A stretch of DNA of 64,000 bases from Paludibacter sp. Lineage in GTDB: Bacteria; Bacteroidota; Bacteroidia; Bacteroidales; Paludibacteraceae. Below are positions 25,075-45,681 of the stretch, piece by piece; positions within the stretch are counted from its first letter, which is position 1; each line of letters starts with the position of its first letter. The stretch lies in NCBI GenBank assembly GCA_034927265.1, contig JAYFQH010000026.1:2220-66219 (forward strand), written 5' to 3'. Both the position numbers and the translations under genes were made by a program. The notes below the pieces were generated by a model. The model made no database searches. It saw nothing but the letters and a program-made list of their open reading frames with translations, and had not been told where the DNA came from.

Positions 25075-27456
25075 TTAATCTTTCAACGCCTTATCTGCAT
25101 TCAAATCGACACCGTCCCATGCTTTTTTTGATGTCCATCTGGTCGGTGGATTACTCCAGAACGGATCGCTTTCGGGTAATCCGAGAGCGATGAACACGGC
25201 TGAGCACAGGTAAAGACTTCCGGTAGATATATATGTCTCACCGATAGCGGGTTGATAACCGACCATACCGACTCTTAACCAACCATTCGGATTGAAAGTT
25301 CCGGGTGCATTGATCTGCCGGTTGATAATGGCAGAAAGACCGCATCTTACCTGGGCGGGATCTATGCTCCCGGGCAACAGTTTGCGGTAGGCTGCATCGG
25401 AAAGCGCCTGAAATGCCCCGAAACGATACGCTAACGAGCGTCCGACAACAGGATAAGTACCTTCGGGAGAGATCAGCCGTTCCTGAAGTTCGGCATAACG
25501 GGCATATCGTGAAATTTCAACATTATAAAAATCCGCATCTTCGGCGTCATGTTTTTTCATGACGGAAAGAATCTCCACCATCATGGGTTGTATGACAAAA
25601 CTGTTGTAGTAGTCTAAGTGAAAGTTAGGTCCGTCTCCGTACCATCCGTCGCCTTTATACCATTGTTTATGCCTTTCCATGGCATACTTTATACGATCGA
25701 ATTTCCATTCGCCGGTGAATTCTTTCAGGGCAGCCTCCACCATGGCCGAGAAAAATAACCAGTTGCTTTCAGATGGTTTAATAACCCGGGATGATTTCAA
25801 TTCCTGAATAACCCGTTGTTGTGTAACCGGATCCAGTTTATCCCATAACTGAGTACGTGCCCGAAGCAGGCCATGTGCCAGAAAAGCCGCATCGACCAAA
25901 GGCTGACGTCCGTTTTTAAAATTCAGGTAATCGGGAGATGAAGGATCTACGCCCTGAGTAATGGACCGAAGCGCCAGGTCGATATATTTTGCTCTCAAAC
26001 GACCTTCTACAGTTTGATCAGGTCCTAACTCCAACCAGGGAGAGATGCCTGTTATAAGGCGTCCCAAAGCTTCCAGATGGGTTACTTCTTTTCTTTTTTC
26101 CATATCGGCGGCATTGGACTCCACAGGCATGTTTTTCCGCAGTTCTCCTTTGCTCATATTGGTCAGCAGGGGATTGGAAATTCGATCCAAAGCACTCAAC
26201 CACAAGGCTCTGTCTTTGTTTTCGGAATAAACGGTGATCAGGTCAGTAACGGGTTTTCCTGCTTTCAGTTTTTTATACCTGATCAAGGCTTCTACAAAAT
26301 AATAATCGGCATAAGTGAGCGGAGCGTCTATTTCATAATTTTTAGCGACAAAGCCGGTTGAATGCTGAAGGATAAAATGATGATTATCCCCTATCTTTTT
26401 AGCTCTGTATGCTGATGAAGCCAGTGATTTCAACTGTTGTTCACCGATTTTCAGAAAATCCTGCGATAATTTACCATCTAAATAAGTACTCATTTCGATA
26501 AAAGCAGAGGCCATAATGGCTCCTGCAGAAGCATCTCTGTATTCTTTAGGGATATTTGGAGCATCAAAATCCCAATAAGGAATTTTATCTTTAGGTAGAT
26601 TCGGATGGTTCATAATAAATCGACCTATTTTTACGGCCTGATCCAGATAAGCTTTTTTACCTGTTTGCCTGTACATCATGGTGAATCCATATAATCCCCA
26701 GGCTTGTCCGCGTGACCACGAAGATCCGTCGTTCACACCTTGATGCGTTATCTGATTCAATACTTTACCGGTAACAGAATCATAGCTCACTACCTGAAAA
26801 GAACTTCCGTCGGGCCTGAAATGATTCTTCATGGTTTTGTCGGCATGCGATTTAGCCATATCATAGTAGGTATTATCGCCTAAGTAAGAAGAAGCTACCG
26901 TTAGCAGTTCCAGGTTCATCATATTATCTATAATGACTGAAAACTGATATTTCCGGCTGTTCCACGAACGGATGGAACCTACTTCGGGAAGAAATCGTTT
27001 GGACAAGGAACGCGCTGCTGTAGTGATCACCTCGCGATAGGCTTCATTTCCCGTGATCCTGTATGCATTTCCGAAGCTGCAATTGATAGTAAAACCCACA
27101 TCATGACTGGAAGTAGTATATTGCTCTCCTTTTACCCGGGCCAACATCTGTTCTGCGGCTTTCCTGACGGATTCATCCCGGCTGTATTCATACAAATACC
27201 ACAGAGTTCCGGGATAAAAACCGGAAGTCCACCAGTTCGACCGGCAGGTGATCAGCTTTCCGTTTTCGACGGTACGGGGCAATATTCCTGGTTCATCCTT
27301 GATTGTTTCATACATTTTCATCGATTGCCTGAGGGAAAAGTCGAGCGCTTCGTCTACCGTTTTTTCCATTGAACTCCGTTGTGAAGATAAGGCAGGTATT
27401 GAAACGCACACCATCAATACCATCAAAATACATTGATTCTTTTTGTTCTTTGTCAT
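25075..27456 (-). CDS. Fusion protein: N-terminal GH88-like domain plus C-terminal DUF2264-like domain
   Basis: The first ~400 aa are paralogous to the GH88 at 2106-3272 (DNMMNLELL, GQAWGLYG, IPYWDFDAPNIP, RDASAGAIMASA). The remaining ~390 aa resemble DUF2264 (WYGDGPNFHLDYYNSFVIQPM, YPVVGRSLAYRFGAF). Confidence 0.7.
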   Translation of the reverse strand: MTKNKKNQCILMVLMVCVSIPALSSQRSSMEKTVDEALDFSLRQSMKMYETIKDEPGILPRTVENGKLITCRSNWWTSGFYPGTLWYLYEYSRDESVRKAAEQMLARVKGEQYTTSSHDVGFTINCSFGNAYRITGNEAYREVITTAARSLSKRFLPEVGSIRSWNSRKYQFSVIIDNMMNLELLTVASSYLGDNTYYDMAKSHADKTMKNHFRPDGSSFQVVSYDSVTGKVLNQITHQGVNDGSSWSRGQAWGLYGFTMMYRQTGKKAYLDQAVKIGRFIMNHPNLPKDKIPYWDFDAPNIPKEYRDASAGAIMASAFIEMSTYLDGKLSQDFLKIGEQQLKSLASSAYRAKKIGDNHHFILQHSTGFVAKNYEIDAPLTYADYYFVEALIRYKKLKAGKPVTDLITVYSENKDRALWLSALDRISNPLLTNMSKGELRKNMPVESNAADMEKRKEVTHLEALGRLITGISPWLELGPDQTVEGRLRAKYIDLALRSITQGVDPSSPDYLNFKNGRQPLVDAAFLAHGLLRARTQLWDKLDPVTQQRVIQELKSSRVIKPSESNWLFFSAMVEAALKEFTGEWKFDRIKYAMERHKQWYKGDGWYGDGPNFHLDYYNSFVIQPMMVEILSVMKKHDAEDADFYNVEISRYARYAELQERLISPEGTYPVVGRSLAYRFGAFQALSDAAYRKLLPGSIDPAQVRCGLSAIINRQINAPGTFNPNGWLRVGMVGYQPAIGETYISTGSLYLCSAVFIALGLPESDPFWSNPPTRWTSKKAWDGVDLNADKALKD

Positions 27457-27489
27457 AAATAATTTAATTAAATATCATATCATTTTATA

Positions 27490-30400
27490 TTACCAGGTCA
27501 TTAAAACAGGCTTATCCGCAGATTCGCGTGAGGAGATAATGAACTGCTCTCCGTTATCGGCATCATCTCCCAATTGCCTGAGCTCGCGAATAAAAATGAA
27601 AGTTATGCTTTTCCCTTTTATCCGGCGTAGAATGTCGGTAACATCGATTGCGCAATCGGTTTGTTCCATTCCGGCAACCATTTCTCCGGCCAGAAAAGTA
27701 TCCGAACCGGTACTTACCCAACTGCACGTTACATCTCCGCTGAGTTGAGGCGCGTTGTCCCGGTTGATTCTATCTTCTTTCCAGCCGGTATTTTCCGTAG
27801 CGTATACATGCAGCCTGAAAGGAGCGGAGGAAGTAGTATGAGCAGATATTTTCAGAATAGCTGCCTGAAGTTTGTCCCTGTCGATCCGATTCAGGTCGAA
27901 ACGCATGTAACCGATTCTGTTGTCTTCTGGCCTGGCGGCATGCATTTCTACTTGTACTTCCGGTAGGTTGCCGTAATTTTCTTTTGCAAAGCGGCCGCCT
28001 TGCACAGTCGCGTCCGCCGCAGATGTTATTTCCCTATAGTTTTGACTTCCTTTCGCCGGAATGGTGAGGAGCATTACACTTTGAGCCGGTAGTTTCAGTG
28101 AAACGGACCGGTTGTTGTCTATGGACTTCACCATGGTAACGTTTCCGTAATTTTTCCCACTGACTTCTTCGGCAATGACGCGGGCATCTTTCCCTATATT
28201 CAGGCGACTCAGATCGATTGTTACCGTGTCGCAGACAATTTTTCTTTGTACTAACCAGATATAATACACCCCGGATAAGTTGTCGTACGATACCATTACG
28301 TCGGTATCCCGGTTGCCTGGCGAACTAACGGTTGTTTTTAACAAGGGACGTTCATCCTTGAAACCTTTGGCGAACAAGCGGATGACTTCTCCCGTGCGGT
28401 GTATGCCGCTGATGCTGTACGACGGCTGGATATTTTTCATGGAAGCAGCATCGAACAGTTTAATTTCACGTATCTTGATGCTTCCGGCATCCGTTGAAAC
28501 AAATCGAACTTTGTCGGTTTCTACGCGAGTATTAAATATGAAAAACGATTGTACATATTTTGCTCCTTTCTGAACGGTTTCTTCTATGTCGATCCATTCG
28601 TTTTCCTTCATATATTGTAATTTGAAATTTTTCACCCTATCGGGACCTGTGAATACGCCGTATGCAGAACCGGTATAAACTACGGCACCACCTATGGAAT
28701 ACATTTTCCCCAGGTCTATTTCCAGATATTTATCATTATTGGTTAACGGCGACAGCCAGGCGGAGCTGTCACTTTTATCTCCGTCACATATTCCGGCTAT
28801 TTTTACAGGTGTTCCGGATGTCCGATCGAAAACAGGCTTATCTTTTGCGATATTCAGATAAGCGTCTTCCACAATTCGTTGTCCCTGCCAGGTCAGGTGA
28901 TGCCCCGATTTGATACCGCGGGGATAAGTTCCGCTTGCGGTATTCGCCATTTTAAATGCCCACATACCGTAACATCCGTTCAGTGTATTATTGGTATATT
29001 CTCCCGCCCATTCGGTAAATAAGGAGGGAGAGTCCATGGTTTCGTATTTATCGATCAGGTGAGCATTCATCCAGCGCCCGGTTTCGGTAAAAACAATTGG
29101 CAACGACTTTTTCTGCGGATGATTTTCTGTAATAAGTTCCCTGATCTCCGATACTTTGGTTGCATAACCGGAGGCCGGGAGATTATAGGCATGGGTGGAG
29201 AATATGTCTATCAGGTCGCGGTTTCCCGGTTTACCGCTGTAATGCGTGCGGATATTTTTCATAACTTCAACCCACCAGTCGATGTTGGTTCCTGCTGTTA
29301 TTGGAGATAATATCTTTGCTGTCAGTTTTTTACCGTATCGTTTGTTGACATCTTCCACAGCACAATGCACGGCATCCGATACGATTTGTAAACCGGAAAT
29401 GTATGTTTCGATTTTCATCGGACCTGCAGCGTGGTGATTCGGTTCGTTTTGCATGGCAAACATGCTCACATCACCTGTTTTGGCGGCATAATAGGCTAAA
29501 GCGTAAAAACGCTGCCACTGTTGCCATTTGTTCGACCAGTTATTATTGAAGTTCCGGTCGTTTATCTGTAGAACAACATCAATTCCGAGCCGCTTCGTTT
29601 CTTCCAATGCATACCTCAGTTCCGTGGCATTGGTTCCGTACATGATTGTTTCGCAGACCGGAATGATTTGTTCCCAGCGAATGAAGGTGTTGTGTTCCGG
29701 ATTATTTCTCAGCATTTGTTTGTTGACTTCGAAGCGGGATAGTGAATTTACCTGTTCATCCGCGGATATGCATGAGACCGGTACGTAATCGTTCAGAGAA
29801 GCCCATACACGCAGACTGTTTACGTTCGAATACCGTAACCAGTCGCTCGCATTACATCCAGGCACGAAATATCCTTGATTATAGGCAACGTACTTCATTG
29901 ATTTGCCGGTAGTTTCCGGATAAACAGAAATCCGTATGTTTTCACCGGCCTGCTCGGCATAGGGTTGCTCTTTTGCTTCGGGTGCATCAGGTAACGGCAT
30001 ATTTTTTTTGACCGTACCAAATATCTCTATTTCGTTAATACGGATGGGTTCGCCGTCGGTTGAAATCAGACGAAACTGAAAAGTAGTCAGCGCCGGCTTG
30101 AAACGGAATAAAATAGTATCTTTTCTGTTTTCATATATTTCAGTCTGTGGAAGATCGGTCCAGTTAGCATCGTCCCAATATTGCATTCTCATGTTTTTGA
30201 CAGACCAGAAGCCGGGCGCCTGGCCTTTTTCAGCATTTTTTTTTTCTGTTTCCGGTATACCGCTATAGATAACTACACGGTTTACATCGCAATATTGTTT
30301 GAGATTGATTGTTACCTGATGCGGAGGACGGACAGAAGCATGGCTCATCCATGCATGGTTCCGGGATATTCTACCATCCGTAATGTTGAACGCCGGAGAA

Positions 30401-30522
30401 TTCCCGTCTTCGGAAGAAACGGCAACAGGTTTGTGCAAAGCGACGTTTATTTCCTGCGCAAACAGGCTTGACGCAGCAATTAAAAAGTATAAGAGACACA
30501 GGAACAATCTGAAATTCGGCAT
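27490..30522 (-). CDS. Secreted multidomain glycoside hydrolase candidate: F5/8-type C (CBM32-like), clan GH-A TIM barrel, second F5/8-type C, beta-sandwich tail
   Basis: The ATG at 30522 gives a signal peptide (MPNFRLFLCLLYFLIAASSLFAQ). There are two discoidin-like modules (IRINEIEIFG and IKIREIKLFD endings). Clan GH-A style catalytic motifs are present: MQNEPNHH (acid/base) and IVFTETGRW (nucleophile). The C-terminal module has GYMRFDL. Confidence 0.6.
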   Translation of the reverse strand: MPNFRLFLCLLYFLIAASSLFAQEINVALHKPVAVSSEDGNSPAFNITDGRISRNHAWMSHASVRPPHQVTINLKQYCDVNRVVIYSGIPETEKKNAEKGQAPGFWSVKNMRMQYWDDANWTDLPQTEIYENRKDTILFRFKPALTTFQFRLISTDGEPIRINEIEIFGTVKKNMPLPDAPEAKEQPYAEQAGENIRISVYPETTGKSMKYVAYNQGYFVPGCNASDWLRYSNVNSLRVWASLNDYVPVSCISADEQVNSLSRFEVNKQMLRNNPEHNTFIRWEQIIPVCETIMYGTNATELRYALEETKRLGIDVVLQINDRNFNNNWSNKWQQWQRFYALAYYAAKTGDVSMFAMQNEPNHHAAGPMKIETYISGLQIVSDAVHCAVEDVNKRYGKKLTAKILSPITAGTNIDWWVEVMKNIRTHYSGKPGNRDLIDIFSTHAYNLPASGYATKVSEIRELITENHPQKKSLPIVFTETGRWMNAHLIDKYETMDSPSLFTEWAGEYTNNTLNGCYGMWAFKMANTASGTYPRGIKSGHHLTWQGQRIVEDAYLNIAKDKPVFDRTSGTPVKIAGICDGDKSDSSAWLSPLTNNDKYLEIDLGKMYSIGGAVVYTGSAYGVFTGPDRVKNFKLQYMKENEWIDIEETVQKGAKYVQSFFIFNTRVETDKVRFVSTDAGSIKIREIKLFDAASMKNIQPSYSISGIHRTGEVIRLFAKGFKDERPLLKTTVSSPGNRDTDVMVSYDNLSGVYYIWLVQRKIVCDTVTIDLSRLNIGKDARVIAEEVSGKNYGNVTMVKSIDNNRSVSLKLPAQSVMLLTIPAKGSQNYREITSAADATVQGGRFAKENYGNLPEVQVEMHAARPEDNRIGYMRFDLNRIDRDKLQAAILKISAHTTSSAPFRLHVYATENTGWKEDRINRDNAPQLSGDVTCSWVSTGSDTFLAGEMVAGMEQTDCAIDVTDILRRIKGKSITFIFIRELRQLGDDADNGEQFIISSRESADKPVLMTW

Positions 30523-30572
30523 GATCTTTTTTATAAATATAAACGTAATAAGTACATAGGGCACAAAAGAAA

Positions 30573-30616
30573 GTGATGAGTGATAAGTGATAAGTGATGT
30601 CACTTATCACTTATCG
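30573..30616. repeat. Heptamer-repeat hairpin: GTGATRA x3.7 facing TTATCAC x2; perfect 16 bp stem with a 2 nt centre
   Basis: 30582-30597 gataagtgataagtga and 30600-30615 tcacttatcacttatc are exact reverse complements. It lies between the stop of the 308 aa gene (30641) and the start of the next gene (30522). Confidence 0.9.
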
Positions 30617-30640
30617 TCAATCTTAATGGCCTTATATGAT

Positions 30641-31567
30641 TTATTTAATAACTGTTTTTATCATTTCCGTACTACGATCCGGCGACGAAATTTTAATGAT
30701 ATTGAAACCCTGAGGCAAGGTAACAGATGCCCCGTTTGACAATACATTATTTCGCACAATTGCTCCTACCTGGTTATATACGGTTATAGATATGTTATCT
30801 TTAGCAATCAGTTCATTACCGGTAATTTGAGCTACAGAAGTCGGGGATGCGGGTTTAAGACCAGTGCTGGTCCTGATGCCGGTAACGGTTACATTGTCAA
30901 CGCGGGAAATTCCTCCACTTCCCAATGGACCTCCACCTACGGCAATATCATTCACACACCATCTGAAAGCAACTTTTACCTGATTATTGCATGCAGCCGG
31001 TAAAACATGCGTCCACAAATCAGCCGGGTTGCTTCCGATTTTAGAACTAGACGAGGCACCTGTACGAACATCTTTAAATACGTCGTCCACCCATGCACCA
31101 TCTCCTACTTTATATCCAAACCGGAATTGTGTCATTCCCACAGTTCCTACACTTACCAGATACAGGCTTACCTCTATATTTTCCTTATTTAGCGTAGTAA
31201 GACTATCCAACAACCAATACCTTGTTGTTCTACCCAATGCGTCATCTTTTTGCCAGGCAGACTGACTGATGCAATTTGTACCAAAATTTGTTGTTGTAAC
31301 CAGAGTATGATTATTTTCATAAAAGCTAACAGCCTCTTCTCCGTTCATTCCTTCTCTGAAAGCGCCGAAAGTAGCATCTTTTTTATTCTTATACTCATTA
31401 TACGCATAGAGCCTTGTCCCTCCTGTTTCTTCATCGGATCCCCAGTAAAGATAATCAGCAGTACCGGCATTAAATCCCCAATACGCCAAAGTGTCACGTT
31501 GTGCAAACATTGCGCCTGCACATAATGTAAAGACCAAAGTCCATACGATTTGTAATTTTTGTTTCAT
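30641..31567 (-). CDS. Secreted hypothetical protein with a T9SS C-terminal sorting domain
   Basis: Signal peptide ending AQ, a beta-rich body, and a C-terminal ~80 aa (ISITVYNQVGAIV...GFNIIKISSPDRSTEMIKTVIK) typical of a Por/T9SS CTD. Confidence 0.6.
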   Translation of the reverse strand: MKQKLQIVWTLVFTLCAGAMFAQRDTLAYWGFNAGTADYLYWGSDEETGGTRLYAYNEYKNKKDATFGAFREGMNGEEAVSFYENNHTLVTTTNFGTNCISQSAWQKDDALGRTTRYWLLDSLTTLNKENIEVSLYLVSVGTVGMTQFRFGYKVGDGAWVDDVFKDVRTGASSSSKIGSNPADLWTHVLPAACNNQVKVAFRWCVNDIAVGGGPLGSGGISRVDNVTVTGIRTSTGLKPASPTSVAQITGNELIAKDNISITVYNQVGAIVRNNVLSNGASVTLPQGFNIIKISSPDRSTEMIKTVIK

Positions 31568-31653: not shown

Positions 31654-31680
31654 ATTCACTATTATTTTCCACTATTCACT
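31654..31680. repeat. Short heptamer array (ATTCACT ATTATTT TCCACT ATTCACT) overlapping the stop codon of the 1028 aa gene
   Basis: Read directly. It uses the same unit type as 57474-57508 and the CTCCACT units at 18865-18885. Confidence 0.6.
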
Positions 31681-36439: not shown

Positions 36440-36451
36440 TATATAAACGTA

Positions 36452-39400
36452 TTAAAATTGAACATTTAATCCAAAGATAAATTGACGGGCTTCAGGATAA
36501 GCATTGAGACTCAATTCAGGGCTATAGGATAAGTATTTCGTACTTGTCCACAGATTCGTCGCAGTAAAATAGAATCTCAGTTTATCTACAAAAAATGCTG
36601 AAGTCAGTGCATGTGGAAGCGTATAACCTAAGGATAGGGTTCTCAGACGTACATAGGAAGCATCCTGGTAGCCCAGCGCGTCGTCGTAGGTATCCTGTTT
36701 TCCGTAATTAGGCCGCGGATATTCATTGGAAGGATTTTCCGGCGTCCAGTAATTCACTTTAACGGCATTCAGTTTTCCCTGCAGGTTTCCGTTTTTCAGA
36801 TAGGTGTTATTTTTCAGGATTCCCTGTACCGTATAAAGTTCGGCATATAAATCAAATCCTTTGAAAAACAAAGTAGAACTTAAGGAACCTGTCCAGTCCG
36901 GTTCTCTCGAACGAATATCCTGATCGTCCACCGTGATATATCCGTTTCCGTCCATATCCTTTACTTTCACATCACCGGGTTTGGCATTTTCCATTATTTG
37001 CCTGTCGGGTACACCATCGCCGTCTGTATCGACTGTTTTGTCAATAAACCCGTCTCCGTCGGTATCATCGCTTTTTTGCCAGATACCATCAAAAATATAC
37101 GACCGGAAAACACTGATAGGCTTGCCGATGTACCATCTGTTATCAATGTCATCCATTGGTTTTCCTTCGGCATCGATCTTATCATTCACCCTGACGATTT
37201 CGGATCTTGCAGTAGCAAATGTGGCATTGATCTGCCAGTCAAAATCTTTTTGATGGAAGATAACTCCACCCAGTGTAGCCTCCCAGCCCCGGGTTTTGGT
37301 TTCGGCAAGATTATCCCAGAGATAGGTATAGCCGGAAGTGGATGTAATGTATCTTTTCACGAGCAGGTCGGTCGTTCTTGTGTTGTAACTTTCCACGCTC
37401 CCGGTAATTCTGCCGTTGAAGAATCCGAAATCGAGTCCAATATTGGTTGATGCGGTGGATTCCCATTTCAGATTGGGATTTTTCAATTCGTCCGTCGGAG
37501 AATAGCCCATGAACAGCAGGTCATCGCCGAAACGCATTTCATAACTGTTAGTAATACCTAATGTACGATAGGATGGAATTGCCTTGTTTCCCACCATACC
37601 GTAACTCAACCTGAGTTTCAGGTTAGATATCCATTCGATGGGTTTGATGAACGCTTCTTCGGAGATTCTCCAGGCCAAAGCTGCAGAAGGAAAATAGCCC
37701 CATTTGTTATTTTTTCCGAATACCGACGAGGCGTCAGCTCTCATGGAGGCGGTTAATAAATACTTTTCGAACAGTGAATAGTTTACTCTTCCCAGATATG
37801 AAAGAAAAGTTTCGTCCGATATTGTCCTTGTTGTGCTGTTGATGTTGATTGCATCGCCCAGACCGTCCCATTTAAAAAAGTCTACCGGAACCTGGCTACC
37901 TCCGAATCCGGTTGTTTTGGTTTCCTCTTTTTCGGCACTTTGAACGAAGGTGAACGTCAGCCGGTGATTTTTCCCAAAAGCCTGTTCGTATGTTACAATA
38001 TTTTCCAACAGGATATTGCTGTAATAGGAATCGGATATGGTACCGGAGTTTACGGTTTTGGGATAATTGTTGGTTTTATAATCACCCGATTCGGTAAACC
38101 GGGTTTTATAAGCGGCATTAATCCGGTAAGTGAATCCTTTAAATGGTTTTAAATCCACGTAAAGGTTCAGGTTCATCCGGTCAGCTACAGAACGCTGATC
38201 CGATTCCTGTATTTTATATAAAGGATTTTCAACACCTTCCGAATTGATGGTGGATGTATAACTGCCGTCGTCCTCAAATACTTTGGCGATCGGAGGCCGG
38301 GTAATAAATTCTTCGAAAGAGCCGTCTTCAGTTTGCGACCAGGATTTGATAAAGGAAAAATTAGTTCCGATGGTTAAAAACTTATTGACGTCATAATCTG
38401 TATTTAACCGGAAATTTGCCCGGTTGTAATTTGATTTTGCAACCATACCATCCTGATCGAAATATCCGAACACCAAAGCATATTTCATTTTATCCGTGGC
38501 TCCGCGTACACTCAGGTCGTGTTTTTGTTCCCATGCATTTTTAAACATGAGATTGTTCCAGTTCACAAATTCACGTTTTTCCCACATTTCCTGCATCATT
38601 GGATCTGAGAGAACTCTGTCCGGCGTCCGTTCGTCATCGGCTAATCCTTCGTAGTTTCTTTTGCCCTGCCAGCGGAGTTCATAAAATTCATCTGCATTAT
38701 AAAATTCAAAGTTTTTCCACAGGCTTTGGGTGCCCACATACGCATCATAGGTAACCAATGGCTTTCCGGATACGCCTTTTTTCGTCGTTATAAGGACAAC
38801 CCCGTTGGCAGCTCTGGCACCGTAAATGGCCTGTGATGAAGCATCCTTGAGCACATCTACTGATGCTATTTCCGTAGGATTGATCACATTGATGGATTCA
38901 ACCTGAACTCCGTCCACTATATATAAAGGAGTATTGGAGGCGGTAAGGGAGCGGTTGCCACGTATCCGGATATCGGAACCCGCACCTGGGCGTCCCGACG
39001 ATAGCGTTACCTGTACCCCGGCAGCTTTCCCACGCAACATTTCTGATAAACCCGACGTGGGGAAACTCAGGTCTGCTGCCTGGATGGAAGATACTGCGCC
39101 TGTGAGATCACTTTTTCTGACACTACCGTAACCGACTACTACCACTTCATCCAGTTGTTCCGAACTTTCCTTCATAATGACACGGAAAGTTTGCCGGTTA
39201 TTCACAGGAATTTCCTGGGGAATGTAACCGATAAAAGAAAATTTCAGGGTTGCTGTTGCATCGGCCTGCAGGGAGAATTCTCCATTCATGTTTGTGACCG
39301 TACCTGTTGTTGCGCCTTTAACAGTGACGCTTACGCCTGTCAACGGACCAAATTCATCGGAAACGGTACCCGACACGCGGATGTTCTGTGCATATGCAAC

Positions 39401-39463
39401 TGAAAAGAACATCATGCAGAGCATACCGGTCAATAGATGTTTTGTTAGTTTTGTGGTTTTCAT
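36452..39463 (-). CDS. susC: SusC/RagA family TonB-dependent outer-membrane transporter
   Basis: 1003 aa with a CarboxypepD_reg-like N-terminus (IRVSGTVSDEFGPLTGVSVTVKG), a plug (VVVVGYGSVRKSDLTGA) and a terminal F residue of the beta-barrel. Confidence 0.92.
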   Translation of the reverse strand: MKTTKLTKHLLTGMLCMMFFSVAYAQNIRVSGTVSDEFGPLTGVSVTVKGATTGTVTNMNGEFSLQADATATLKFSFIGYIPQEIPVNNRQTFRVIMKESSEQLDEVVVVGYGSVRKSDLTGAVSSIQAADLSFPTSGLSEMLRGKAAGVQVTLSSGRPGAGSDIRIRGNRSLTASNTPLYIVDGVQVESINVINPTEIASVDVLKDASSQAIYGARAANGVVLITTKKGVSGKPLVTYDAYVGTQSLWKNFEFYNADEFYELRWQGKRNYEGLADDERTPDRVLSDPMMQEMWEKREFVNWNNLMFKNAWEQKHDLSVRGATDKMKYALVFGYFDQDGMVAKSNYNRANFRLNTDYDVNKFLTIGTNFSFIKSWSQTEDGSFEEFITRPPIAKVFEDDGSYTSTINSEGVENPLYKIQESDQRSVADRMNLNLYVDLKPFKGFTYRINAAYKTRFTESGDYKTNNYPKTVNSGTISDSYYSNILLENIVTYEQAFGKNHRLTFTFVQSAEKEETKTTGFGGSQVPVDFFKWDGLGDAININSTTRTISDETFLSYLGRVNYSLFEKYLLTASMRADASSVFGKNNKWGYFPSAALAWRISEEAFIKPIEWISNLKLRLSYGMVGNKAIPSYRTLGITNSYEMRFGDDLLFMGYSPTDELKNPNLKWESTASTNIGLDFGFFNGRITGSVESYNTRTTDLLVKRYITSTSGYTYLWDNLAETKTRGWEATLGGVIFHQKDFDWQINATFATARSEIVRVNDKIDAEGKPMDDIDNRWYIGKPISVFRSYIFDGIWQKSDDTDGDGFIDKTVDTDGDGVPDRQIMENAKPGDVKVKDMDGNGYITVDDQDIRSREPDWTGSLSSTLFFKGFDLYAELYTVQGILKNNTYLKNGNLQGKLNAVKVNYWTPENPSNEYPRPNYGKQDTYDDALGYQDASYVRLRTLSLGYTLPHALTSAFFVDKLRFYFTATNLWTSTKYLSYSPELSLNAYPEARQFIFGLNVQF

Positions 39464-39597: not shown

Positions 39598-41406
39598 TTA
39601 TATTTCACCGGTAACGTTACCCGGGGTGATACCGCTGTCGTTATAAGTATCTACCCGGTAATAGTATGGTGTGCCTTTAGTGAGAATGTGTACTAACAGG
39701 GAGACGGTATCATTCCCTTTCACCTGAATACACTGGTTCAGAAAATCGGGAGCGTAACCAAAACGTACCAAGTATCCGTCAGCATTATTTACTTTTTCCC
39801 ACGACAAAGAGGCGTATCGTTCGTCTTCTCTGTCTCTTGTGACCAACAATTTTTTTACCTGTGCTGGAGCCTTTGCTTTTCCAAAACCAAAGACACGCAA
39901 ATCTAATAATGCGAATTTGCCATTTCTTGGGGTGTACACATTTTCTATTTTGACGTACAAAACGTTCATTGGCCGTGCAAGTTCAATGTAATCATGCGGA
40001 ACGGGTTTTTTGTTCAGGCTTTTATCAGCTATCATTTTCCATTTTTCACCATCTGCCGAAACATATAATTTATAGGCATGATAATCCATGTCCAACGATG
40101 TTCCGTAATCTACGTCCTGTTCTGCAAAATTAATCTGGATGGCATTTACGCGTACCTTTTTTCCTAAATCCATTATCAGCGATTCGCCCGGATTTCCTGT
40201 AGCAGCCGACCACCATGTCCTGATATTTTCATCGCTTGCCTTGTAAGCCTCAAAACCAGATAATTCGGAAGAACCTACACATTTCTTCCGGTACGATTGT
40301 ACCATCCATCCAGCGATGTTAATATCTTTTGGTGTAAAGCTGCGTTGGGGCAGCGGAAGAGGATAATCACCCAATACCGTGTGTGTACGCATGCGTCCCT
40401 GCTTGTCGAAAGAAACGGGAAAAAGTCCGATACGCCGCTCAAATGCATCGTGATTACCCACCCACATCGTGGTTGCCTGCCACCAGTTTTGATATTTGTC
40501 CTGAAATACGCTGCTATGTCCTGCTCCTCCGATAAAACCTCCTACTTTAAGGGAAACGGGGTTATAGGGTTTTTCTTCAAAGGGACCTGTAGGAGAGTCG
40601 CTTTCTGTTACCACATCACAATACCAGGGATGTATCGTTCCTGGTGTGGCGTATTGCAGGTAATATTTATCGTTATGCCTGACGATCCAGGCGCCTTCGG
40701 GACAAGGCAGGTTTTTGAACTTTCCTTTCCATGCGGAGGCGTCCAGTTCATCCGAAAGTTCCCTTCTTCCGAAATGATAACCGGCTTTGCAATCGTTGAC
40801 ATCGGTAATATATTCCCGCAATAGTTTGGCCGATCCCGGAATTTCGGTCAAAGTAACCGGATCCAATTCATAACAGGTAGTTTGCTGGTTGGCTCCCAGT
40901 CCGTAATAAACGAAGTAACGACCTTTGTCGATAAATAAGCTGGGGTCGGCCATGCGTCTTACTTTTCCGCAAACTTCCCATTTACCGCTCATCGGGTCGG
41001 AGGAACGAATCAGGTCGATTTCTTTCAGACTTCTGTTTCTGTTGAAGTTGATGAAATAGAGATACTGATCGTCGGCGGCGACCGCCGGAGCTACGTAATG
41101 GTCGATATCTAAAGCCGAAGCATGGATAGCCGGATCGAAATAAATGTTTTGCCAGTGCATCAGGTCGTCCGATACCCGGTATCCGCCGATGTCCTGCGTA
41201 GTGAAAAGATAATATTTCCCTTTGAACAGTACGATGACCGGATCGGCGGATGTCCGGGCGTTCCGTATGGGACTGCTGAGGTTTCCCCAACCGTAATCCA
41301 GATTTAAGGGATTGCAGTAAGTACGGGGTGGGGTGCTGCGCAGATTTCCGTTGCAGGAAAAAATGATTGTTGTAGTCAGAATGAATAGTTGTGTGATGTG
41401 TTTCAT
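39598..41406 (-). CDS. GH43-like five-bladed beta-propeller glycoside hydrolase with C-terminal F5/8-type C and Fn3-like modules
   Basis: CNPLNLDY...SADPVIVLFKGKYYLF, DPSLFIDKGRYFVYYG and PEGAWIVRHNDKYYLQY match the GH43 Asp/Asp/Glu blade pattern. A discoidin-like segment (IRTWWSA...VNAIQINF) follows. Confidence 0.7.
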   Translation of the reverse strand: MKHITQLFILTTTIIFSCNGNLRSTPPRTYCNPLNLDYGWGNLSSPIRNARTSADPVIVLFKGKYYLFTTQDIGGYRVSDDLMHWQNIYFDPAIHASALDIDHYVAPAVAADDQYLYFINFNRNRSLKEIDLIRSSDPMSGKWEVCGKVRRMADPSLFIDKGRYFVYYGLGANQQTTCYELDPVTLTEIPGSAKLLREYITDVNDCKAGYHFGRRELSDELDASAWKGKFKNLPCPEGAWIVRHNDKYYLQYATPGTIHPWYCDVVTESDSPTGPFEEKPYNPVSLKVGGFIGGAGHSSVFQDKYQNWWQATTMWVGNHDAFERRIGLFPVSFDKQGRMRTHTVLGDYPLPLPQRSFTPKDINIAGWMVQSYRKKCVGSSELSGFEAYKASDENIRTWWSAATGNPGESLIMDLGKKVRVNAIQINFAEQDVDYGTSLDMDYHAYKLYVSADGEKWKMIADKSLNKKPVPHDYIELARPMNVLYVKIENVYTPRNGKFALLDLRVFGFGKAKAPAQVKKLLVTRDREDERYASLSWEKVNNADGYLVRFGYAPDFLNQCIQVKGNDTVSLLVHILTKGTPYYYRVDTYNDSGITPGNVTGEI

Positions 41407-41535
41407 AATAATATGTGATGAGTGATTTGTTTGTATTTACTTATGTGTCCTCATGTGACTAATGTGGTTCAATATTTATATATATCTTTTGTGTTCCCTT
41501 AGTCTTTTTGTTTGATTTTGAATGTTAAGTATGTT

Positions 41536-41623: not shown

Positions 41624-41670
41624 TACGTACTTATGCAATTTTAATTGATATAATGTTTATTGAACGATTC

Positions 41671-44600
41671 TCATTTCTTTTGGAACTGTATCGGAGTCAT
41701 TCCATATAATTCTTTGAAACGCTTGATAAAATAACTGGGTGAGTTGAATCCGACTTCGTAAGCTATTTCCGAAACGGTTTTTTCACTGCCTTCTTCCAGC
41801 AGTTGTCTGGATTTTTTCAACCGCACATTCAGAATAAATCCATTGGGCGTCTGACCGGTTATTCCTTTGATCTTGAGGAAGAGCTTTGTCCTGCCCAGCC
41901 CGATTTCACGTGCGAAACGGTTTACGTCGAAATCGGCGTCACCGATATTGTTTTCGATGAGCTCCACGCATCGTGTCAGAAATTGCTGGTCGAAGTTGTT
42001 GGTAGTCAGAATATCTACACCTGTGTCGGTACGACCTGCATATTTTGATTGTAGCAACCGTCGGTTGTTCACTAAGTTGTTGCACCGGGTGAACAGGTGC
42101 TTTACACTGAACGGTTTGGTGATGTAGTCGTCAGCGCTCATTTTCAGTCCTTGTATGAGATACTCTTCCGAGTTTTGTGCGGTCAGTAAAATAACCGGGA
42201 TGTGCGAGGTGTCGAAATTTTCTTTGATTTTGCGGCACATTTCTATTCCCGACATTCTGGGCATCATGATGTCGCTTAAAATGATGTCCGGTTGTTTTTC
42301 CAACGCTTTTTCCATGCCATCAATACCATCTACGGCTGTAAATACCTGATATACTGAAGAAAATAAACGTTCCAGCAATTCCAGCAGTTCCAGATTATCT
42401 TCAACGATCAGAATAGACGGTTTGTTCCCGTTTCCATTTCCATTACTTTCCACGAAAACCAGCTGTTCGTCATCTTCCTGTAATTGAATATTTCCATGTG
42501 TGTTTAATTCTTCTATGCACGACATATCCACATTCCTGGCCGGTGCTTTTTGCGTATTTAAAATGTGTGAATCGTTTAATGGCAGCCGGATCACAAACGA
42601 AGTCCCTTTGCCGATTTTGCTGTCCGCCCGGATATCTCCCTGGTGTGCATAAATAATCTCCCGGGTAATCGCTAGTCCCAGACCAGTTCCCGTTGCACCT
42701 TCCATTTCATCAATCTGGTAAAAACGATCGAAAATACGCTCCAGCTTGTCTGCCGGAATGCCGATGCCGGTATCAGTAATCCGGATATACACATTATATG
42801 CGTCCACTTCCACCGAAATAGTGACGGAACCATTTGGATGCGTATACTTGAATGCATTGGATAACAGGTTGTTCACCGCTTTTTCCATTTGTTCTACATC
42901 GAACCAGACTTCCAGAAACGCATCATCAGTGCGCAGGAATATCAGACTGATATCTTTGAAACGGGAATATTCTTTGAACGACAAATATATTTCTTCCAAA
43001 AAACGGTAAATATCCTGTTTGCTGAATTTCAATTCTTTGTAGCCTTGTTCTTGTTTTCTGAAATCGAGCAGTTCCGTAACCAAACGTTTCATCCTGATCC
43101 CATTCCGGTGTACATGAACTAATTTATTATATACCTGTGGTTTGATGTCGGTTCGTTCAATGAGCATTTCCAGTTGACTTATTATCAATGTTAAAGGAGT
43201 TCTGAATTCATGGGATATATTTGTGAAGAAGCGTAATTTTGACTGGTTCAGGCGTTCAATCTGTGCTTTTTCCCTCTTTTCAAGTTCCAGCGAAGCACTT
43301 AATTTTAATTTGGACGAGTAAAAAGAAGCAATCAGGTAGATGACAATGATGAGTATCACTACATACAATATATAGGCCCATACTGTTCTGTAGAAAGGAG
43401 GCATCACGATGATATCCAGTTCTTTAAAAATACTCTTACCTTCATTTGAAGCATCGACGCTTTTGATCCGCAGCTTATATTTTCCTGGATTCAGGTTCGT
43501 GTACGTTATACTGTTCCTGAAATTCATATCAATCCAGGAATCATCAAAACCTTCTAATTTATAATAGATTTTGTTTTTGAGTACCGATACATAATTGGAT
43601 AAGGAAATATGGATGGTCAGTACTGAGTAATTGTGTTTTATCCGGATTCCGGACTGGTACAACAGCGATTCCTGCAAAATTCCTGAATCGTCGTTCGGAA
43701 GTACCTGTTTGTTGTTGACCTCCAGAGAAGTAAAATTCAACTGATAAGGCTTTACATACGAGTTTAATTCTTTCTCGTAGAATGAGATCATCATTTTAGG
43801 ACCCGCAAGGAATATTTCATCATCGTTCGTTACAAATATGCCGAAAGCGTTTACGGAAGTAAGAGGAAAACCATTTTGCTCGTTATAGTTGTAAAACTGT
43901 TGATTCTCAGTGTCAAAACGGGAGAAACCCTGGTTGGAAGCTATCAGCAGATATCCCAACAGCGACTCTTTGATGTCTAATATAAAATCATTGACCAAAC
44001 CGGAATTTTGGGAATTGTAAACTTTGAATGAATCGCTTGTCGCTTCATATAAAAAGATACCCGAACCGGAAGTCCCGATCCAGATACGACCTTTTTTATC
44101 CTGGAAGATCACATTGACTAAGTTATGTTCGATCGGCATATTGCCGGAAGTATATTCTTTCAACGCGTTTGTCTCAAGGTTATACTTTGTCAGCCCTGCC
44201 GAATGGGAAAACCACAGATTTCCGTTTTTGTCCAATATCATATCAATTATGAACCGTTGGTTGAGAAGGACATCTTGCTGCAAGCGTGAACAGCTTCCGG
44301 TAAGCGGATCAAAAATACAAATACCGTCATGCGTCATCAGGATCAGATGGTTTTTGAAAGGAAGTATTTTCCGTATACTATTGTTTATCAGTGATTTCTT
44401 ATCTCGTTTATCGTTTCTGTAATTCCTGATGTGTTTGGTCTTAATATCCATTCTATCCAATCCGCCCGATACTGAGCCTATCCACAAAATATCTTGTTGT
44501 TCATCTAAATATAAACCCTGCGTGGTGTTGGATGCAATGGAATTCTTATCAGGATGATGTTTGTAAACGGTGAAAACTTTTGTCTTTCTGTCTAAATAGT

Positions 44601-45681
44601 TCAGTCCGCCACCTTCAGTAGCTAACCAGATGTTGCTGTTTTTGTCTTCGAGCATTCTTCCGGCAAAAGGAGAACTCATTCTTCCCGGAGTGGAATCATC
44701 GGCATAGTAATATTTATATATTTCATACTCAGGATTGAACATGTTGATGCCCCCGTAGTAAGTGCCTATCCACAACGTCCCCTGCTGATCTTTCGATATG
44801 CAAACGACTGAAGAATTGCTCAGACTGTAAAGCCTCTTGTCTTTCTGATACAACGTGAATTGTCCGGTAGAAATATCTAATTTGTTCAATCCTTTGAACG
44901 TTCCGATCCAATAATTGCCGAAATTATCCTCACAAACAGAGCGGACATAATTGTCGGCAATGGAATTTTTATTGTAAGGGTCATATTTATACTGTACCAT
45001 CCTGCCGTTCCTGTCCATTCTGATCAATCCGTCGCTACGGGTGGATACCCAGATATTCATTTTTGAATCTTCGTATATACTGATAACATGCACATCAGGG
45101 AAATAATTCATACACTTGATGTTTTCATCAATGACGTATAATCCCTCGTGTTGCGTTCCGATGTATATTTTTTTATTGCTGCTTTCCAGTATGGAGGTAA
45201 TTTTTGGATTTGTTTCTGTAAAGCCATAATGAAGTTTCAGTTTTTTTCCTTTATTGTCGTATGTATAAACCGAATCGGACGCGCACACCCAAAGCTTATC
45301 CGAACCATAAGCAATAGCTTGTACGTGATTATCGCGTATGGTGTAGAATCTGTTCAGCCGCATATCGTATTCGGCCACGGCATATTTGCAACGCACGTAA
45401 ATATGACCGTTCCGGTCGCCGCATACCGACCCCACATTATTGTTAAATAAGCTGTTGGGGGCACCGGTTTTAGGTCTGAATACCTGTATGTTACTGCCGT
45501 TATAGACATTCAGTCCGTCTTTAGTGGCAATCCAGATAAGGCCGAATTCATCCTGATAAATGGAATTTATCGTGGGTTGCGACAGCCCGTCCTCTACGTT
45601 GAGGGTTTGAAAATGAATTTCCTGCGAAAAAGAGACTACGGAAATAAGCAGGAAAAAATATAGCGGGATATTTCGAAGCAT
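41671..45681 (-). CDS. Hybrid two-component sensor histidine kinase/response regulator (HTCS) with AraC-type output
   Basis: 1336 aa. N-terminal periplasmic two-component-regulator propeller repeats, Y_Y_Y, TM, HisKA (ISHEFRTPLT), HATPase (DTGIGI, GTGLGL), receiver (ILIVEDN...DIMMPRMSG) and AraC HTH. Confidence 0.92.
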   Translation of the reverse strand: MLRNIPLYFFLLISVVSFSQEIHFQTLNVEDGLSQPTINSIYQDEFGLIWIATKDGLNVYNGSNIQVFRPKTGAPNSLFNNNVGSVCGDRNGHIYVRCKYAVAEYDMRLNRFYTIRDNHVQAIAYGSDKLWVCASDSVYTYDNKGKKLKLHYGFTETNPKITSILESSNKKIYIGTQHEGLYVIDENIKCMNYFPDVHVISIYEDSKMNIWVSTRSDGLIRMDRNGRMVQYKYDPYNKNSIADNYVRSVCEDNFGNYWIGTFKGLNKLDISTGQFTLYQKDKRLYSLSNSSVVCISKDQQGTLWIGTYYGGINMFNPEYEIYKYYYADDSTPGRMSSPFAGRMLEDKNSNIWLATEGGGLNYLDRKTKVFTVYKHHPDKNSIASNTTQGLYLDEQQDILWIGSVSGGLDRMDIKTKHIRNYRNDKRDKKSLINNSIRKILPFKNHLILMTHDGICIFDPLTGSCSRLQQDVLLNQRFIIDMILDKNGNLWFSHSAGLTKYNLETNALKEYTSGNMPIEHNLVNVIFQDKKGRIWIGTSGSGIFLYEATSDSFKVYNSQNSGLVNDFILDIKESLLGYLLIASNQGFSRFDTENQQFYNYNEQNGFPLTSVNAFGIFVTNDDEIFLAGPKMMISFYEKELNSYVKPYQLNFTSLEVNNKQVLPNDDSGILQESLLYQSGIRIKHNYSVLTIHISLSNYVSVLKNKIYYKLEGFDDSWIDMNFRNSITYTNLNPGKYKLRIKSVDASNEGKSIFKELDIIVMPPFYRTVWAYILYVVILIIVIYLIASFYSSKLKLSASLELEKREKAQIERLNQSKLRFFTNISHEFRTPLTLIISQLEMLIERTDIKPQVYNKLVHVHRNGIRMKRLVTELLDFRKQEQGYKELKFSKQDIYRFLEEIYLSFKEYSRFKDISLIFLRTDDAFLEVWFDVEQMEKAVNNLLSNAFKYTHPNGSVTISVEVDAYNVYIRITDTGIGIPADKLERIFDRFYQIDEMEGATGTGLGLAITREIIYAHQGDIRADSKIGKGTSFVIRLPLNDSHILNTQKAPARNVDMSCIEELNTHGNIQLQEDDEQLVFVESNGNGNGNKPSILIVEDNLELLELLERLFSSVYQVFTAVDGIDGMEKALEKQPDIILSDIMMPRMSGIEMCRKIKENFDTSHIPVILLTAQNSEEYLIQGLKMSADDYITKPFSVKHLFTRCNNLVNNRRLLQSKYAGRTDTGVDILTTNNFDQQFLTRCVELIENNIGDADFDVNRFAREIGLGRTKLFLKIKGITGQTPNGFILNVRLKKSRQLLEEGSEKTVSEIAYEVGFNSPSYFIKRFKELYGMTPIQFQKK

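Follow-up and report, generated by a model that had tools for sequence, protein, structure and literature searches.

In this study, a minus-strand gene cluster was analysed within a window of 64,000 nucleotides from Paludibacter sp. (assembly GCA_034927265.1, contig JAYFQH010000026.1). All open reading frames of the cluster, from a hybrid two-component sensor/regulator (HTCS) through to a GH88-DUF2264 protein, were found where the preliminary description had placed them, and their gene content and domain identities were established directly (Table 1). Searches with Pfam, NCBIfam and PDB sequences gave no PL family match for any of the 8 products, and the catalytic residues of GH88 were intact. 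The earlier claim of a PUL with GH88 but without a recognisable polysaccharide lyase was therefore upheld.

Table 1. Features of the cluster and of the divergent neighbouring gene (positions in the window)
Position	Strand	Feature	Evidence or remark
25075..27456	-	Predicted bifunctional GH88-GDH protein, 793 aa, N-terminal signal peptide	Pfam, PDB, alignment
25093..26274	-	Predicted beta-D-glucuronate dehydratase domain (PF10022, DUF2264/BcGHD, formerly GH154), residues 395-788	Pfam 393 bits
26263..27294	-	Predicted GH88 unsaturated glucuronyl hydrolase domain, residues 55-398	PDB 3wiw, 1vd5; catalytic D119, D177
27490..30603	-	1037-aa ORF: CBM32-like domain, clan GH-A catalytic domain (residues ~215-600), 2x CBM32, CBM96	Pfam and model
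30641..31567	-	308-aa secreted protein: CBM-like beta-sandwich and probable T9SS C-terminal domain	
31676..34762	-	Secreted 1028-aa enzyme: CBM96 (DNRLRE), cadherin-like, GH50-like (beta/alpha)8, CBM96, T9SS sorting domain	
34775..36439	-	SusD-type binding lipoprotein, 554 aa	Pfam SusD_RagB, SusD-like_3
36452..39463	-	SusC-type TonB-dependent transporter, 1003 aa	TIGR04056; Pfam Plug, TonB beta-barrel, CarbopepD_reg_2
39598..41406	-	GH43 + F5/8 type C (CBM32) + Fn3 enzyme, 602 aa	Pfam
41671..45681	-	HTCS, 1336 aa	Pfam Reg_prop, Y_Y_Y, HisKA, HATPase_c, Response_reg, HTH_18/AraC
45939..47726	+	595-aa secreted protein, Ca-binding FG-GAP/propeller-like family	Weak FG-GAP_3 match; locus membership uncertain

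The SusC protein matched TIGR04056 at 857 bits (cut-off 368), and the GH43 domain matched PF04616 at 83 bits (cut-off 32) in a protein that also contained PF00754 and fn3 and whose sole solved relative, 5joz, was a weak one (E 5e-6). In Bacteroides intestinalis, B. clarus, B. oleiciplenus and B. xylanisolvens, related PULs begin with an HTCS orthologue (62-65% identity), and orthologues of the GH43 protein (57-70% identity) lie beside the GH88-GDH fusion or beside the 1037-aa enzyme in 20 loci. Moreover, the core order of the SusC, SusD, 1028-aa, 308-aa and 1037-aa genes recurs on 5 independent contigs, counted as far as each contig reaches, which excluded a chance arrangement of the cluster. 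Around homologues of the fusion or of the 308-aa protein, precomputed Pfam calls covered ten neighbourhoods and contained no PL family. In Pedobacter heparinus, GH88 and the dehydratase are encoded by adjoining separate genes in one operon with a 1037-aa-type enzyme.

The 1028-aa protein had previously been described as a member of an unassigned family and as a candidate for a new lyase. Its catalytic domain (residues ~358-761), however, matched PDB 5t3b (BpGH50) with an E value of 1.8e-51 and GH50 agarases with E values of 1e-19 to 1e-24, and its SDNE and TEF glutamate motifs were identical in 8/8 orthologues. These sequence criteria place the protein with the GH50-like hydrolases of clan GH-A, which speaks against a new lyase. 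Its T9SS tail scored 25.4 bits with TIGR04183 (cut-off 23). The nearest solved relative, BpGH50 from the porphyran/agarose PUL of Bacteroides plebeius, is a 481-aa single-domain protein in which agarase activity was not detectable (PMC8260779), whereas the 1028-aa protein carries CBM96 twice, together with a cadherin-like domain and the T9SS tail.

The probable start codon of the 1037-aa ORF is the ATG at 30525 (MPNFRL..., signal peptide; 1011 aa) and not the GTG at 30603. Its catalytic domain matched no Pfam family even at E<=10 and no PDB entry by sequence even when a profile was used, and profile comparison found no relation to the GH50-like domain. The AF2 model (pTM 0.76) was matched by Foldseek to TIM barrels of GH39, GH5, GH53, GH30 and GH51 (TM 0.4-0.49, 10-14% identity), and a glutamate pair, NEP (E173) and TE (E293), was invariant in 82/82 orthologues. 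As modelled, the protein is a clan GH-A barrel of unassigned family, and at least 95 genome loci contain relatives. Apart from the fusion, every catalytic domain of the locus has a hydrolase fold and an intact Glu pair.

The 308-aa protein matched neither Pfam nor PDB sequences and had only 8 homologues among 5.8 billion proteins; its T9SS tail reached 16.6 bits with TIGR04183, which is under the cut-off of 23. The AF2 model, of moderate quality (pLDDT 65), was all-beta, and Foldseek matched it to GH2 N-terminal domains, CBM4, CBM61, CBM22 and an alginate-binding CBM, with no PL among the best 50 matches of this model. This protein had also been put forward as a new lyase, but the model resembles CBM-type sandwiches and not the jelly-rolls of PL7, PL14, PL18 or PL28. 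It is likely to be a surface glycan-binding protein.

The GH88 domain of the fusion aligned with PDB 3wiw (E 1e-105, 49% identity) and with the Bacillus UGL 1vd5 (E 3e-52). Loss of the catalytic Asp residues had been raised earlier as a reason to doubt its role; both were retained, the positions aligned to UGL D88 and D149 being Asp in the 793-aa protein and in 116/116 fused homologues. The dehydratase domain aligned with BcGDH (PDB 9o4u, 9nwf) with E values of 1e-107 to 1e-108 and 43% identity, and it retains 9/10 of the mutagenised active-site residues: E462, R466, N565, W566 and F569 correspond to BcGDH E74, R78, N177, W178 and F181, and Y617, R673, Y677 and Y742 to Y229, R285, Y289 and Y354. 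The proposed catalytic set of BcGDH (Y229, R285, Y289) is thus present, and it is invariant across the fused family, which comprises more than 115 clusters of ~790-aa proteins with 54-81% identity. All 116 aligned fused homologues hold both GH88 Asp residues, as well as eight of the ten residues of the dehydratase site. The fusion is accordingly predicted to have both activities intact.

Two positions of the dehydratase domain differ from BcGDH. N176 is replaced by S564 (Thr, Ser or Asn elsewhere in the fused family), and Y175, a mobile residue that touches the aglycone, is replaced by Glu, as in 101/116 fused homologues. These replacements suggest an acceptor-side specificity unlike that of BcGDH, and chondroitin would not be the expected substrate, given the altered aglycone-contacting residues. 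The activity of the fusion is a prediction from sequence, and 43% identity to BcGDH leaves its specificity unfixed.

The preliminary description regarded lyases as the sole source of 4,5-unsaturated uronates and a hidden lyase therefore as necessary. This premise is outdated, since DUF2264-family glucuronate dehydratases also produce them (PMC12269599). The PF10022 ("GH154") proteins BcGDH and BT_3677 were reported in 2025 to be beta-D-glucuronate dehydratases, and A232 assays, MS and crystal structures demonstrated that these enzymes form the delta-4,5 bond on saturated GlcA and so prime GH88 (PMC12269599). Points against such a role for the fusion are the slow turnover of model substrates by characterised dehydratases (kcat/Km about 0.35-0.54 per min per mM) and the earlier description of two family members as glycosidases (PMC12269599). 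Dehydratase reactions are reversible or reach equilibrium, with a partner hydrolase drawing off the product (PMC12269599, PMC8511951). The inference of a necessary lyase consequently fails, because GH88 here is fused to a DUF2264 dehydratase domain: the locus can do without a lyase since its last enzyme would itself make the unsaturated glucuronate for GH88. Most of the missing-lyase puzzle is already covered by known biology.

Among the closest known parallels is PUL25 of Bacteroides caccae, in which BcGDH and BcGH88 perform the same consecutive steps within a SusC/SusD PUL (PMC12269599). In BcPUL25, however, the two enzymes are separate, whereas in the window they are joined in a single protein, GH88 first and GDH second; moreover, BcPUL25 has a PL35, whereas the present locus is without a lyase, GH109 or peptidases and has GH43, GH50-like and GH-A enzymes as companions. 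BT_3677 of Bacteroides thetaiotaomicron, the founding GH154 member, belongs to the same family and dehydrates methyl beta-D-glucuronide, and it has a different extra domain and is 22% identical to BcGDH (PMC12269599). Unlike the dehydratase of the window, it is not fused to GH88. Its setting is said, by Cartmell et al. in 2018, to be an arabinogalactan-protein PUL for plant galactan with GlcA caps, with GH43 enzymes. That locus also employs a PL27 lyase. The same logic has been known since 2021 from ulvan degradation by Formosa agariphila, where the dehydratase P29_PDnc (CAZy PL37), unrelated in sequence to PF10022 (PMC12269599), reversibly converts saturated GlcA or IdoA into an unsaturated non-reducing end that an unsaturated uronyl hydrolase then removes (PMC8511951). 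P29_PDnc and its partner P33_GH105 are separate proteins, and that PUL also has ulvan lyases (PMC8511951).

Taken together, these data make it probable that the locus is a lyase-independent PUL whose target glycan has chains or side chains ending in beta-linked glucuronic acid. We infer the following enzymatic activities, cellular locations, order of steps and substrate. The polymer would be captured and cut at the surface by the GH50-like T9SS enzyme with the 308-aa binding protein, and the fragments would be imported via SusC/SusD. In the periplasm, the trimming of neutral sugars, probably galactose or arabinose, would fall to GH43 and to the clan GH-A enzyme with its flanking CBM32 modules, and the fusion would strip each saturated GlcA thus exposed in two steps on a single polypeptide. 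The C-terminal dehydratase would eliminate water across C4-C5 to give the 4,5-unsaturated uronate, which the N-terminal GH88 would hydrate and release as 5-keto-4-deoxyuronate; the fusion of the domains may draw the reversible, unfavourable dehydration forward. A breakdown product would be sensed by the HTCS. The earlier guess of a uronic-acid glycan with arabinose or galactose remains reasonable in the form of a uronic-acid-containing, probably galactose-rich substrate.

It is improbable, in our judgement, that a hidden lyase nevertheless exists, with the divergent 595-aa or, less likely, the 308-aa protein founding a family of polysaccharide lyases or dehydratases that supplies GH88 with unsaturated ends, and with the GDH domain only mopping up saturated ends. 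The 595-aa gene and the HTCS gene diverge from a common intergenic region of 257 bp. Its product had no convincing PDB match, and profile searches gave weak similarity to propeller blades and PL11, but the PL11 match covered 28 residues only (E about 0.1). Within its family of 345 representatives, fusions to GH88/GH105 (two proteins), to a Hepar_II_III_C/alginate-lyase region, to DUF4861 and to BNR_4 were found, and homologues are located in PULs next to GH105, heparinase-like and PF14099 lyase genes. A gene of this kind lies within 10 kb in 27/51 long loci; relatives adjoin Hepar_II_III-like genes in 23/51 loci and GH88/105 genes in 10/51. These fusions and neighbours tie the 595-aa protein to uronate glycans. 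However, relatives usually have a heparinase-like lyase alongside already, which suggests an accessory role for the protein and not that of the lyase itself. Moreover, a homologue was present in 0/86 loci related to the PUL or the fusion, the contigs of the closest relatives stopping short of that position. The CBM-like model of the 308-aa protein also argues against this proposal, and the fused dehydratase removes the need for a lyase.

A separate plus-strand locus of GAG type at 46-13158 of the window does contain lyase genes, one for a PL8 and one for a heparinase II/III, which lie about 15-20 kb away and are a possible source of unsaturated ends, against the lyase-independent reading. Relatives of either lyase were absent from all 86 related loci compared. 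The DUF2264 domain could be a plain exo-glycosidase (beta-glucuronidase/beta-galactosidase), in line with the first annotation of GH154, and GH88 could serve the products of lyases elsewhere, such as this pair (3365-9954); the closest solved relative of the GH88 domain is a Pedobacter GH88 (3wiw), a heparin-disaccharide-specific enzyme. This explanation is very unlikely, as the GAG locus owns a separate GH88 (2040-3272) and a separate HTCS, the fused family keeps the Tyr/Arg/Tyr catalytic set without exception, glycosidase activity was absent from highly purified BcGDH (earlier activities being put down to contaminants), BT_3677 itself has dehydratase activity, and the active site is without glycosidase-type acid/nucleophile geometry (PMC12269599). 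Furthermore, fusion to GH88 is functionally sensible only if the two steps are consecutive. In Pedobacter heparinus, GH88 and the dehydratase are encoded by adjoining separate genes in one operon with a 1037-aa-type enzyme.

The minus-strand PUL of Paludibacter sp. (25075-45681) is probably a lyase-free version, with two enzymes fused, of a pathway described in 2025. The 793-aa protein of the PUL joins a GH88 domain to a beta-D-glucuronate dehydratase domain (GDH; PF10022, DUF2264). In the present study, the cluster was found exactly as the preliminary description had outlined it, and searches with Pfam and NCBIfam gave the domains tabulated below. The organization was that of a Sus-like PUL, with SusC and SusD adjacent, the CAZymes co-directional and a sensor/regulator present. 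The intergenic gaps within the operon were 12 to 134 bp, and convergent genes abutted the end of the cluster. Moreover, the core gene order was seen again on five independent contigs (L004, L007, L167, L169 and L170), and the PUL is therefore a conserved unit rather than a chance arrangement. None of the proteins encoded in 25075-45681 matched a PL family in Pfam, in NCBIfam or among PDB sequences.

Features of the PUL, of its divergent neighbour and of the flanking regions (window positions)
Feature	Position	Strand	Locus	Basis
DUF4995 + GH88 protein	2040-3272	+	glycosaminoglycan-type locus	
Heparinase II/III	3365-5350	+	glycosaminoglycan-type locus	
Sulfatase, 23-bp overlap with previous ORF	5328-6689	+	glycosaminoglycan-type locus	
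PL8 chondroitinase-ABC-like lyase with T9SS tail	6727-9954	+	glycosaminoglycan-type locus	
Second sulfatase	9969-11513	+	glycosaminoglycan-type locus	
Omp85/TamA-like gene	16165-18462	-	flanks PUL region	
TamB gene	18884-22867	-	flanks PUL region	
793-aa GH88 + DUF2264 protein	25075-27456	-	PUL	Pfam/NCBIfam
1037-aa protein: two CBM32, C-terminal CBM96	27490-30603	-	PUL	Pfam/NCBIfam
308-aa protein: without family match, sub-threshold T9SS tail	30641-31567	-	PUL	Pfam/NCBIfam
1028-aa protein: CBM96 modules, T9SS sorting domain	31676-34762	-	PUL	Pfam/NCBIfam
SusD	34775-36439	-	PUL	Pfam/NCBIfam
SusC	36452-39463	-	PUL	Pfam/NCBIfam
GH43 + CBM32 + Fn3	39598-41406	-	PUL	Pfam/NCBIfam
HTCS	41671-45681	-	PUL	Pfam/NCBIfam
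595-aa protein	45939-47726	+	divergent neighbour of HTCS	
AsmA/YhdP-like 1025-aa protein	48248-51325	+	flanks PUL region	

The PDB sequence search split the fusion protein in two, with residues 55-398 matching GH88 structures and residues 395-788 matching 9o4u and 9nwf, which were titled "beta-D-glucuronic acid dehydratase" by their depositors (source paper PMC12269599). Across its (alpha/alpha)6 barrel, the GH88 half was closest to 3wiw (E 1e-105, 49% identity), also matched the Bacillus UGL structure 1vd5 (E 3e-52), and scored 39.8 bits against PF07470 (cut-off 26.6). The catalytic residues D88 and D149 of Bacillus UGL aligned with D119 and D177 of the fusion, so both catalytic Asp residues were retained, and Asp occupied both positions in 116 of 116 fused sequences (the window fusion and 115 fused homologues). 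The GDH half scored 393 bits against PF10022 (cut-off 25) with profile positions 1-353 of 353 covered, and matched 9o4u and 9nwf with E values of about 1e-108 (2e-108 for 9o4u) and 43% identity to BcGDH. A HMMER alignment was read against the residue numbering of PMC12269599 for ten active-site residues of BcGDH, nine of which were identical in the fusion: E74, R78, N177, W178 and F181 corresponded to E462, R466, N565, W566 and F569, and Y229, R285, Y289 and Y354 corresponded to Y617, R673, Y677 and Y742. The tenth residue, N176, was replaced by Ser, and the mobile aglycone-contacting Y175 by Glu. Across the same 116 sequences, the equivalents of E74, R78, N177, F181, Y229, R285, Y289 and Y354 were invariant, including the proposed acid (Y289), the proposed base (Y229) and R285, and the W178 equivalent was retained in 115; position 176 was T, S or N and position 175 was mostly E. 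The full-length ORF opened with a signal peptide and homologues spanned it end to end. Judged from sequence, both halves carry conserved catalytic sets, which predicts a GlcA dehydratase joined to a delta-4,5-uronate hydrolase, and the likely location of the protein is the periplasm.

Alvarez et al. (J Biol Chem 2025; PMC12269599) reported that BcGDH of B. caccae, once filed as GH154, is without glycosidase activity and instead acts on saturated beta-GlcA at the non-reducing end, yielding the delta-4,5-unsaturated residue, as demonstrated by an A232 assay, LC-MS/MS and a substrate complex; the product is then removed by BcGH88. The same dehydratase activity was found in BT_3677, the founding member of GH154, and those authors noted co-localisation with GH88 and GH105 genes and proposed that all of the more than 6000 family members are dehydratases (PMC12269599). 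PF10022 is already named "BcGHD" in the newer Pfam release behind the precomputed annotations. In addition, the sequence-unrelated dehydratase P29_PDnc (CAZy PL37), which is paired with GH105 in ulvan breakdown, has been known since 2021 (PMC8511951). The preliminary description had argued that only lyases yield 4,5-unsaturated uronates and that one of the unassigned proteins may therefore represent a new lyase family. That premise is out of date because the GH154/PF10022 dehydratases (PMC12269599) and P29_PDnc (PMC8511951) also make unsaturated uronates, and a missing lyase need not be invoked where the dehydratase domain is fused to GH88 itself. As a rule for annotation, finding GH88 or GH105 but no lyase is no evidence for a missing lyase where a PF10022 (ex-GH154) or PL37-type dehydratase is present, and both PUL annotation and substrate prediction should allow for such dehydratases.

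No description of a GH88-GH154 fusion was found in the literature searched. The dehydratase reactions reach equilibrium or are reversible (PMC12269599, PMC8511951), and fusion to the hydrolase that consumes the product would therefore provide a sensible forward pull. The best 120 matches of the fusion all had the architecture of approximately 790 aa, with 54-81% identity; natural fusions were spread over many more than a hundred protein clusters, and some of these clusters had thousands of gut-metagenome members, which lends independent genomic support to the 2025 proposal that "GH154" as a whole supplies GH88 with its substrate (PMC12269599). The source names included Prevotella, Dysgonamonadaceae and Rikenellaceae MAGs, and the nearest named relatives were from Prevotella, Dysgonamonadaceae and Bacteroidales MAGs. 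In the neighbourhoods with precomputed Pfam calls, the fusion lay within SusC/SusD PULs together with the same GH43+CBM32 enzyme, sulfatases, GH2, GH115, SASA esterases, BACON/Lcl_C proteins and stand-alone extra GDH and GH88 genes; no PL family was present in these neighbourhoods. Lyase genes do exist in this genome at a distance of 15-20 kb, since a separate glycosaminoglycan-type locus holds PL8 and heparinase II/III genes; relatives of either were found in 0 of the 86 loci compared. In Pedobacter heparinus, GDH and GH88 are separate adjacent genes, and their operon also encodes GH2, GH39 and an enzyme of the 1037-aa type.

A related PUL was also observed in B. intestinalis, B. clarus, B. 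oleiciplenus, B. xylanisolvens and others (loci L008-L020), with an HTCS 62-65% identical to that of the window and the gene order HTCS, GH2-like, SASA esterase, 1037-aa-type enzyme, SusC, SusD, BACON/Lcl_C and GH50-like (33% identity). The GH88-GDH fusion and a sulfatase were also present in two species of this set (L008 and L015). These cultured gut Bacteroides could serve to find the inducing glycan. In one further related PUL (L006, 8708-9669), a sulfatase gene appeared as three short ORFs (55, 124 and 156 aa), which points to a pseudogene or a fault in the assembly.

Three proteins had been put forward as possible members of a new lyase family, and two of them, the 1028-aa and 308-aa proteins, were rejected, leaving the 595-aa protein as a candidate. 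The 1028-aa protein was ruled out by homology to GH50, as its residues 358-761 matched BpGH50 (5t3b) with an E value of 1.8e-51 and the agarases 6xj9, 4bq4 and 5z6p with E values of 2e-24 to 2e-19. Around the GH50-like core lie an N-terminal CBM96, a cadherin-like domain, another CBM96 and a T9SS tail (TIGR04183, 25.4 bits, cut-off 23). Its SDNE and TEF motifs, which may hold the catalytic Glu pair of clan GH-A, were identical in eight orthologues. BpGH50, the closest solved relative of this core, is without agarase activity (PMC8260779).

Homologues of the 308-aa protein were rare (eight among 5.8 billion proteins), and a PDB sequence search returned nothing useful. Its model was all-beta and of moderate quality (pLDDT 65), and Foldseek matched it to the sugar-binding sandwiches of GH2, CBM4, CBM61, CBM22, an alginate-binding CBM and a chondroitinase CBM, with no lyase jelly-roll among the top 50 matches. 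On these matches, a role as a lyase was rejected. The T9SS tail scored 16.6 bits, under the cut-off of 23, and the model had a C-terminal beta-sandwich at residues 246-307. The protein may, with low confidence, be a T9SS-anchored glycan-binding protein.

The catalytic core of the 1037-aa protein comprises approximately 385 residues (residues 215-600; window 28804-29961, minus strand), and the likely start codon of the ORF is the ATG at 30525. The core gave no Pfam match, even with E values up to 10 included, and no PDB sequence match by phmmer or by an 18-sequence profile, which matched the flanking CBM32 only; no named family (GH5, GH39, GH30 or other) was assigned by sequence profiles of Pfam or PDB. 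One UniRef name, given to a fragment, reads "GH5 domain". A diverged GH50 was rejected (hhalign probability 0.4%). The AlphaFold2 model was a (beta/alpha)8 barrel (pTM 0.76; pLDDT of the barrel core 85-98), and the best Foldseek matches were GH39, GH5, GH53, GH30, GH51 and GH158 of clan GH-A (TM 0.4-0.49, 10-14% identity), with a probability of 1.0 for the GH39, GH5, GH53 and GH30 barrels. In the model, E173 of an NEP motif follows strand 4 (167-171) and E293 of a TE motif lies in strand 7 (289-294), and both glutamates were invariant in 82 of 82 orthologues. The model thus places the core in clan GH-A, with a predicted acid/base Glu after strand 4 and a predicted nucleophile Glu at strand 7, and the modelled fold is that of a retaining-type hydrolase and not of a lyase. 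Relatives with 49-73% identity were found in at least 95 genome loci (80 kept) from gut, soil and aquatic Bacteroidota, including Bacteroides, Alistipes, Pedobacter, Chitinophaga and Mucilaginibacter; GDH and/or GH88 lay within 10 kb in about 25 of those kept. A few relatives came from Planctomycetota-labelled bins (L037 and L056) and a single one from a bin assigned to archaea (L029); the contigs in question measure about 3 to 14 kb and may have been mis-binned.

The divergent, propeller-like 595-aa protein gave only a weak FG-GAP match in Pfam and no convincing solved relative in the PDB sequence search, and its relatives were all named "hypothetical protein" in their sources. The family had 345 representatives, and motifs of acidic, His and Arg residues were strongly conserved in it. 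Its members (approximately 600 aa; relatives P0190-P0339, loci L087-L166) were rich in Ca-binding, FG-GAP-like motifs, and WENPF, FDEDDD..RWE, GDRGE.D and HLYGAE were among the invariant motifs. Among longer relatives, the fusion partners were GH88/GH105 domains (E 1e-74 to 1e-78), a Hepar_II_III_C/alginate-lyase region, DUF4861 (four cases), BNR_4 and CBMs; in metagenome PULs, homologues adjoined GH105, heparinase-like and PF14099 lyase genes. These fusions and neighbours tie the family to the degradation of uronate glycans. Among 51 loci of at least 12 kb, a heparinase-II/III-like gene lay within 10 kb in 23, GH88/105 in 10 and GDH in none, which suggests that the family usually accompanies a lyase rather than replaces one. 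No homologue was found in the 86 loci related to the PUL, where the contigs of the closest relatives end short of that position. An assignment to PL11 (the YesW/YesX propeller lyases) was not supported, since the profile matches covered 28 residues (4cag, E 0.097; 2zuy, E 1.7) and Pfam gave no PL11 match. The protein is similar in size to P29_PDnc (PL37; 69 kDa), and a search of it for the spacing of the mutated P29 residues gave no match. Taken from sequence and gene context, the family is a candidate new carbohydrate-active family.

In the proposed pathway, the polymer would be attacked by the GH50-like enzyme at the surface together with the 308-aa binder, SusC/SusD would import the oligosaccharides, and the GH43 and CBM32-rich GH-A enzymes would take off neutral sugars. 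The fusion would then remove every beta-GlcA that becomes exposed, first dehydrating it and then hydrating and cleaving it off through GH88, and the HTCS would sense a product. A galactose-rich acidic glycan is suggested by the GH50-like enzyme, by the three CBM32 modules and by the GH2/GH39/GH115 partners that recur, and the substrate is probably GlcA-capped and probably galactose-rich. Arabinogalactan-protein (AGP) side chains are one guess; the GlcA-Gal-Gal-Xyl linkage region of proteoglycans is another, suggested by the nearby glycosaminoglycan-type locus and the enzyme set only. The boldest reading would make this PUL and its relatives a widespread, wholly lyase-free route for acidic glycans in Bacteroidota with the fusion as sole uronate step, the 1037-aa GH-A enzyme a new GH family, the 595-aa protein a member of a new uronate-active family (lyase, dehydratase or similar) and the substrate an unrecognised GlcA-capped galactan from AGP side chains or the proteoglycan linkage region; that all of this holds together is rather doubtful. 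The remaining interest lies in the unassigned clan GH-A domain, the putatively non-agarase GH50 branch, the uronate-linked 595-aa family and the glycan of a common Bacteroidota PUL type.

The glycosaminoglycan-type locus occupies 46-13158 on the plus strand and also contains the C-terminal part of a second HTCS and a DUF3604 protein. The outer-membrane biogenesis genes at 16165-22867 (minus strand) and 48248-51325 (plus strand) are probably unrelated housekeeping genes. At 23015-24965 on the plus strand, the end of the PUL is faced by two convergent genes, one for a 7-bladed lactonase and the other 6-phosphogluconolactonase/glucosamine-6-P-isomerase-like.
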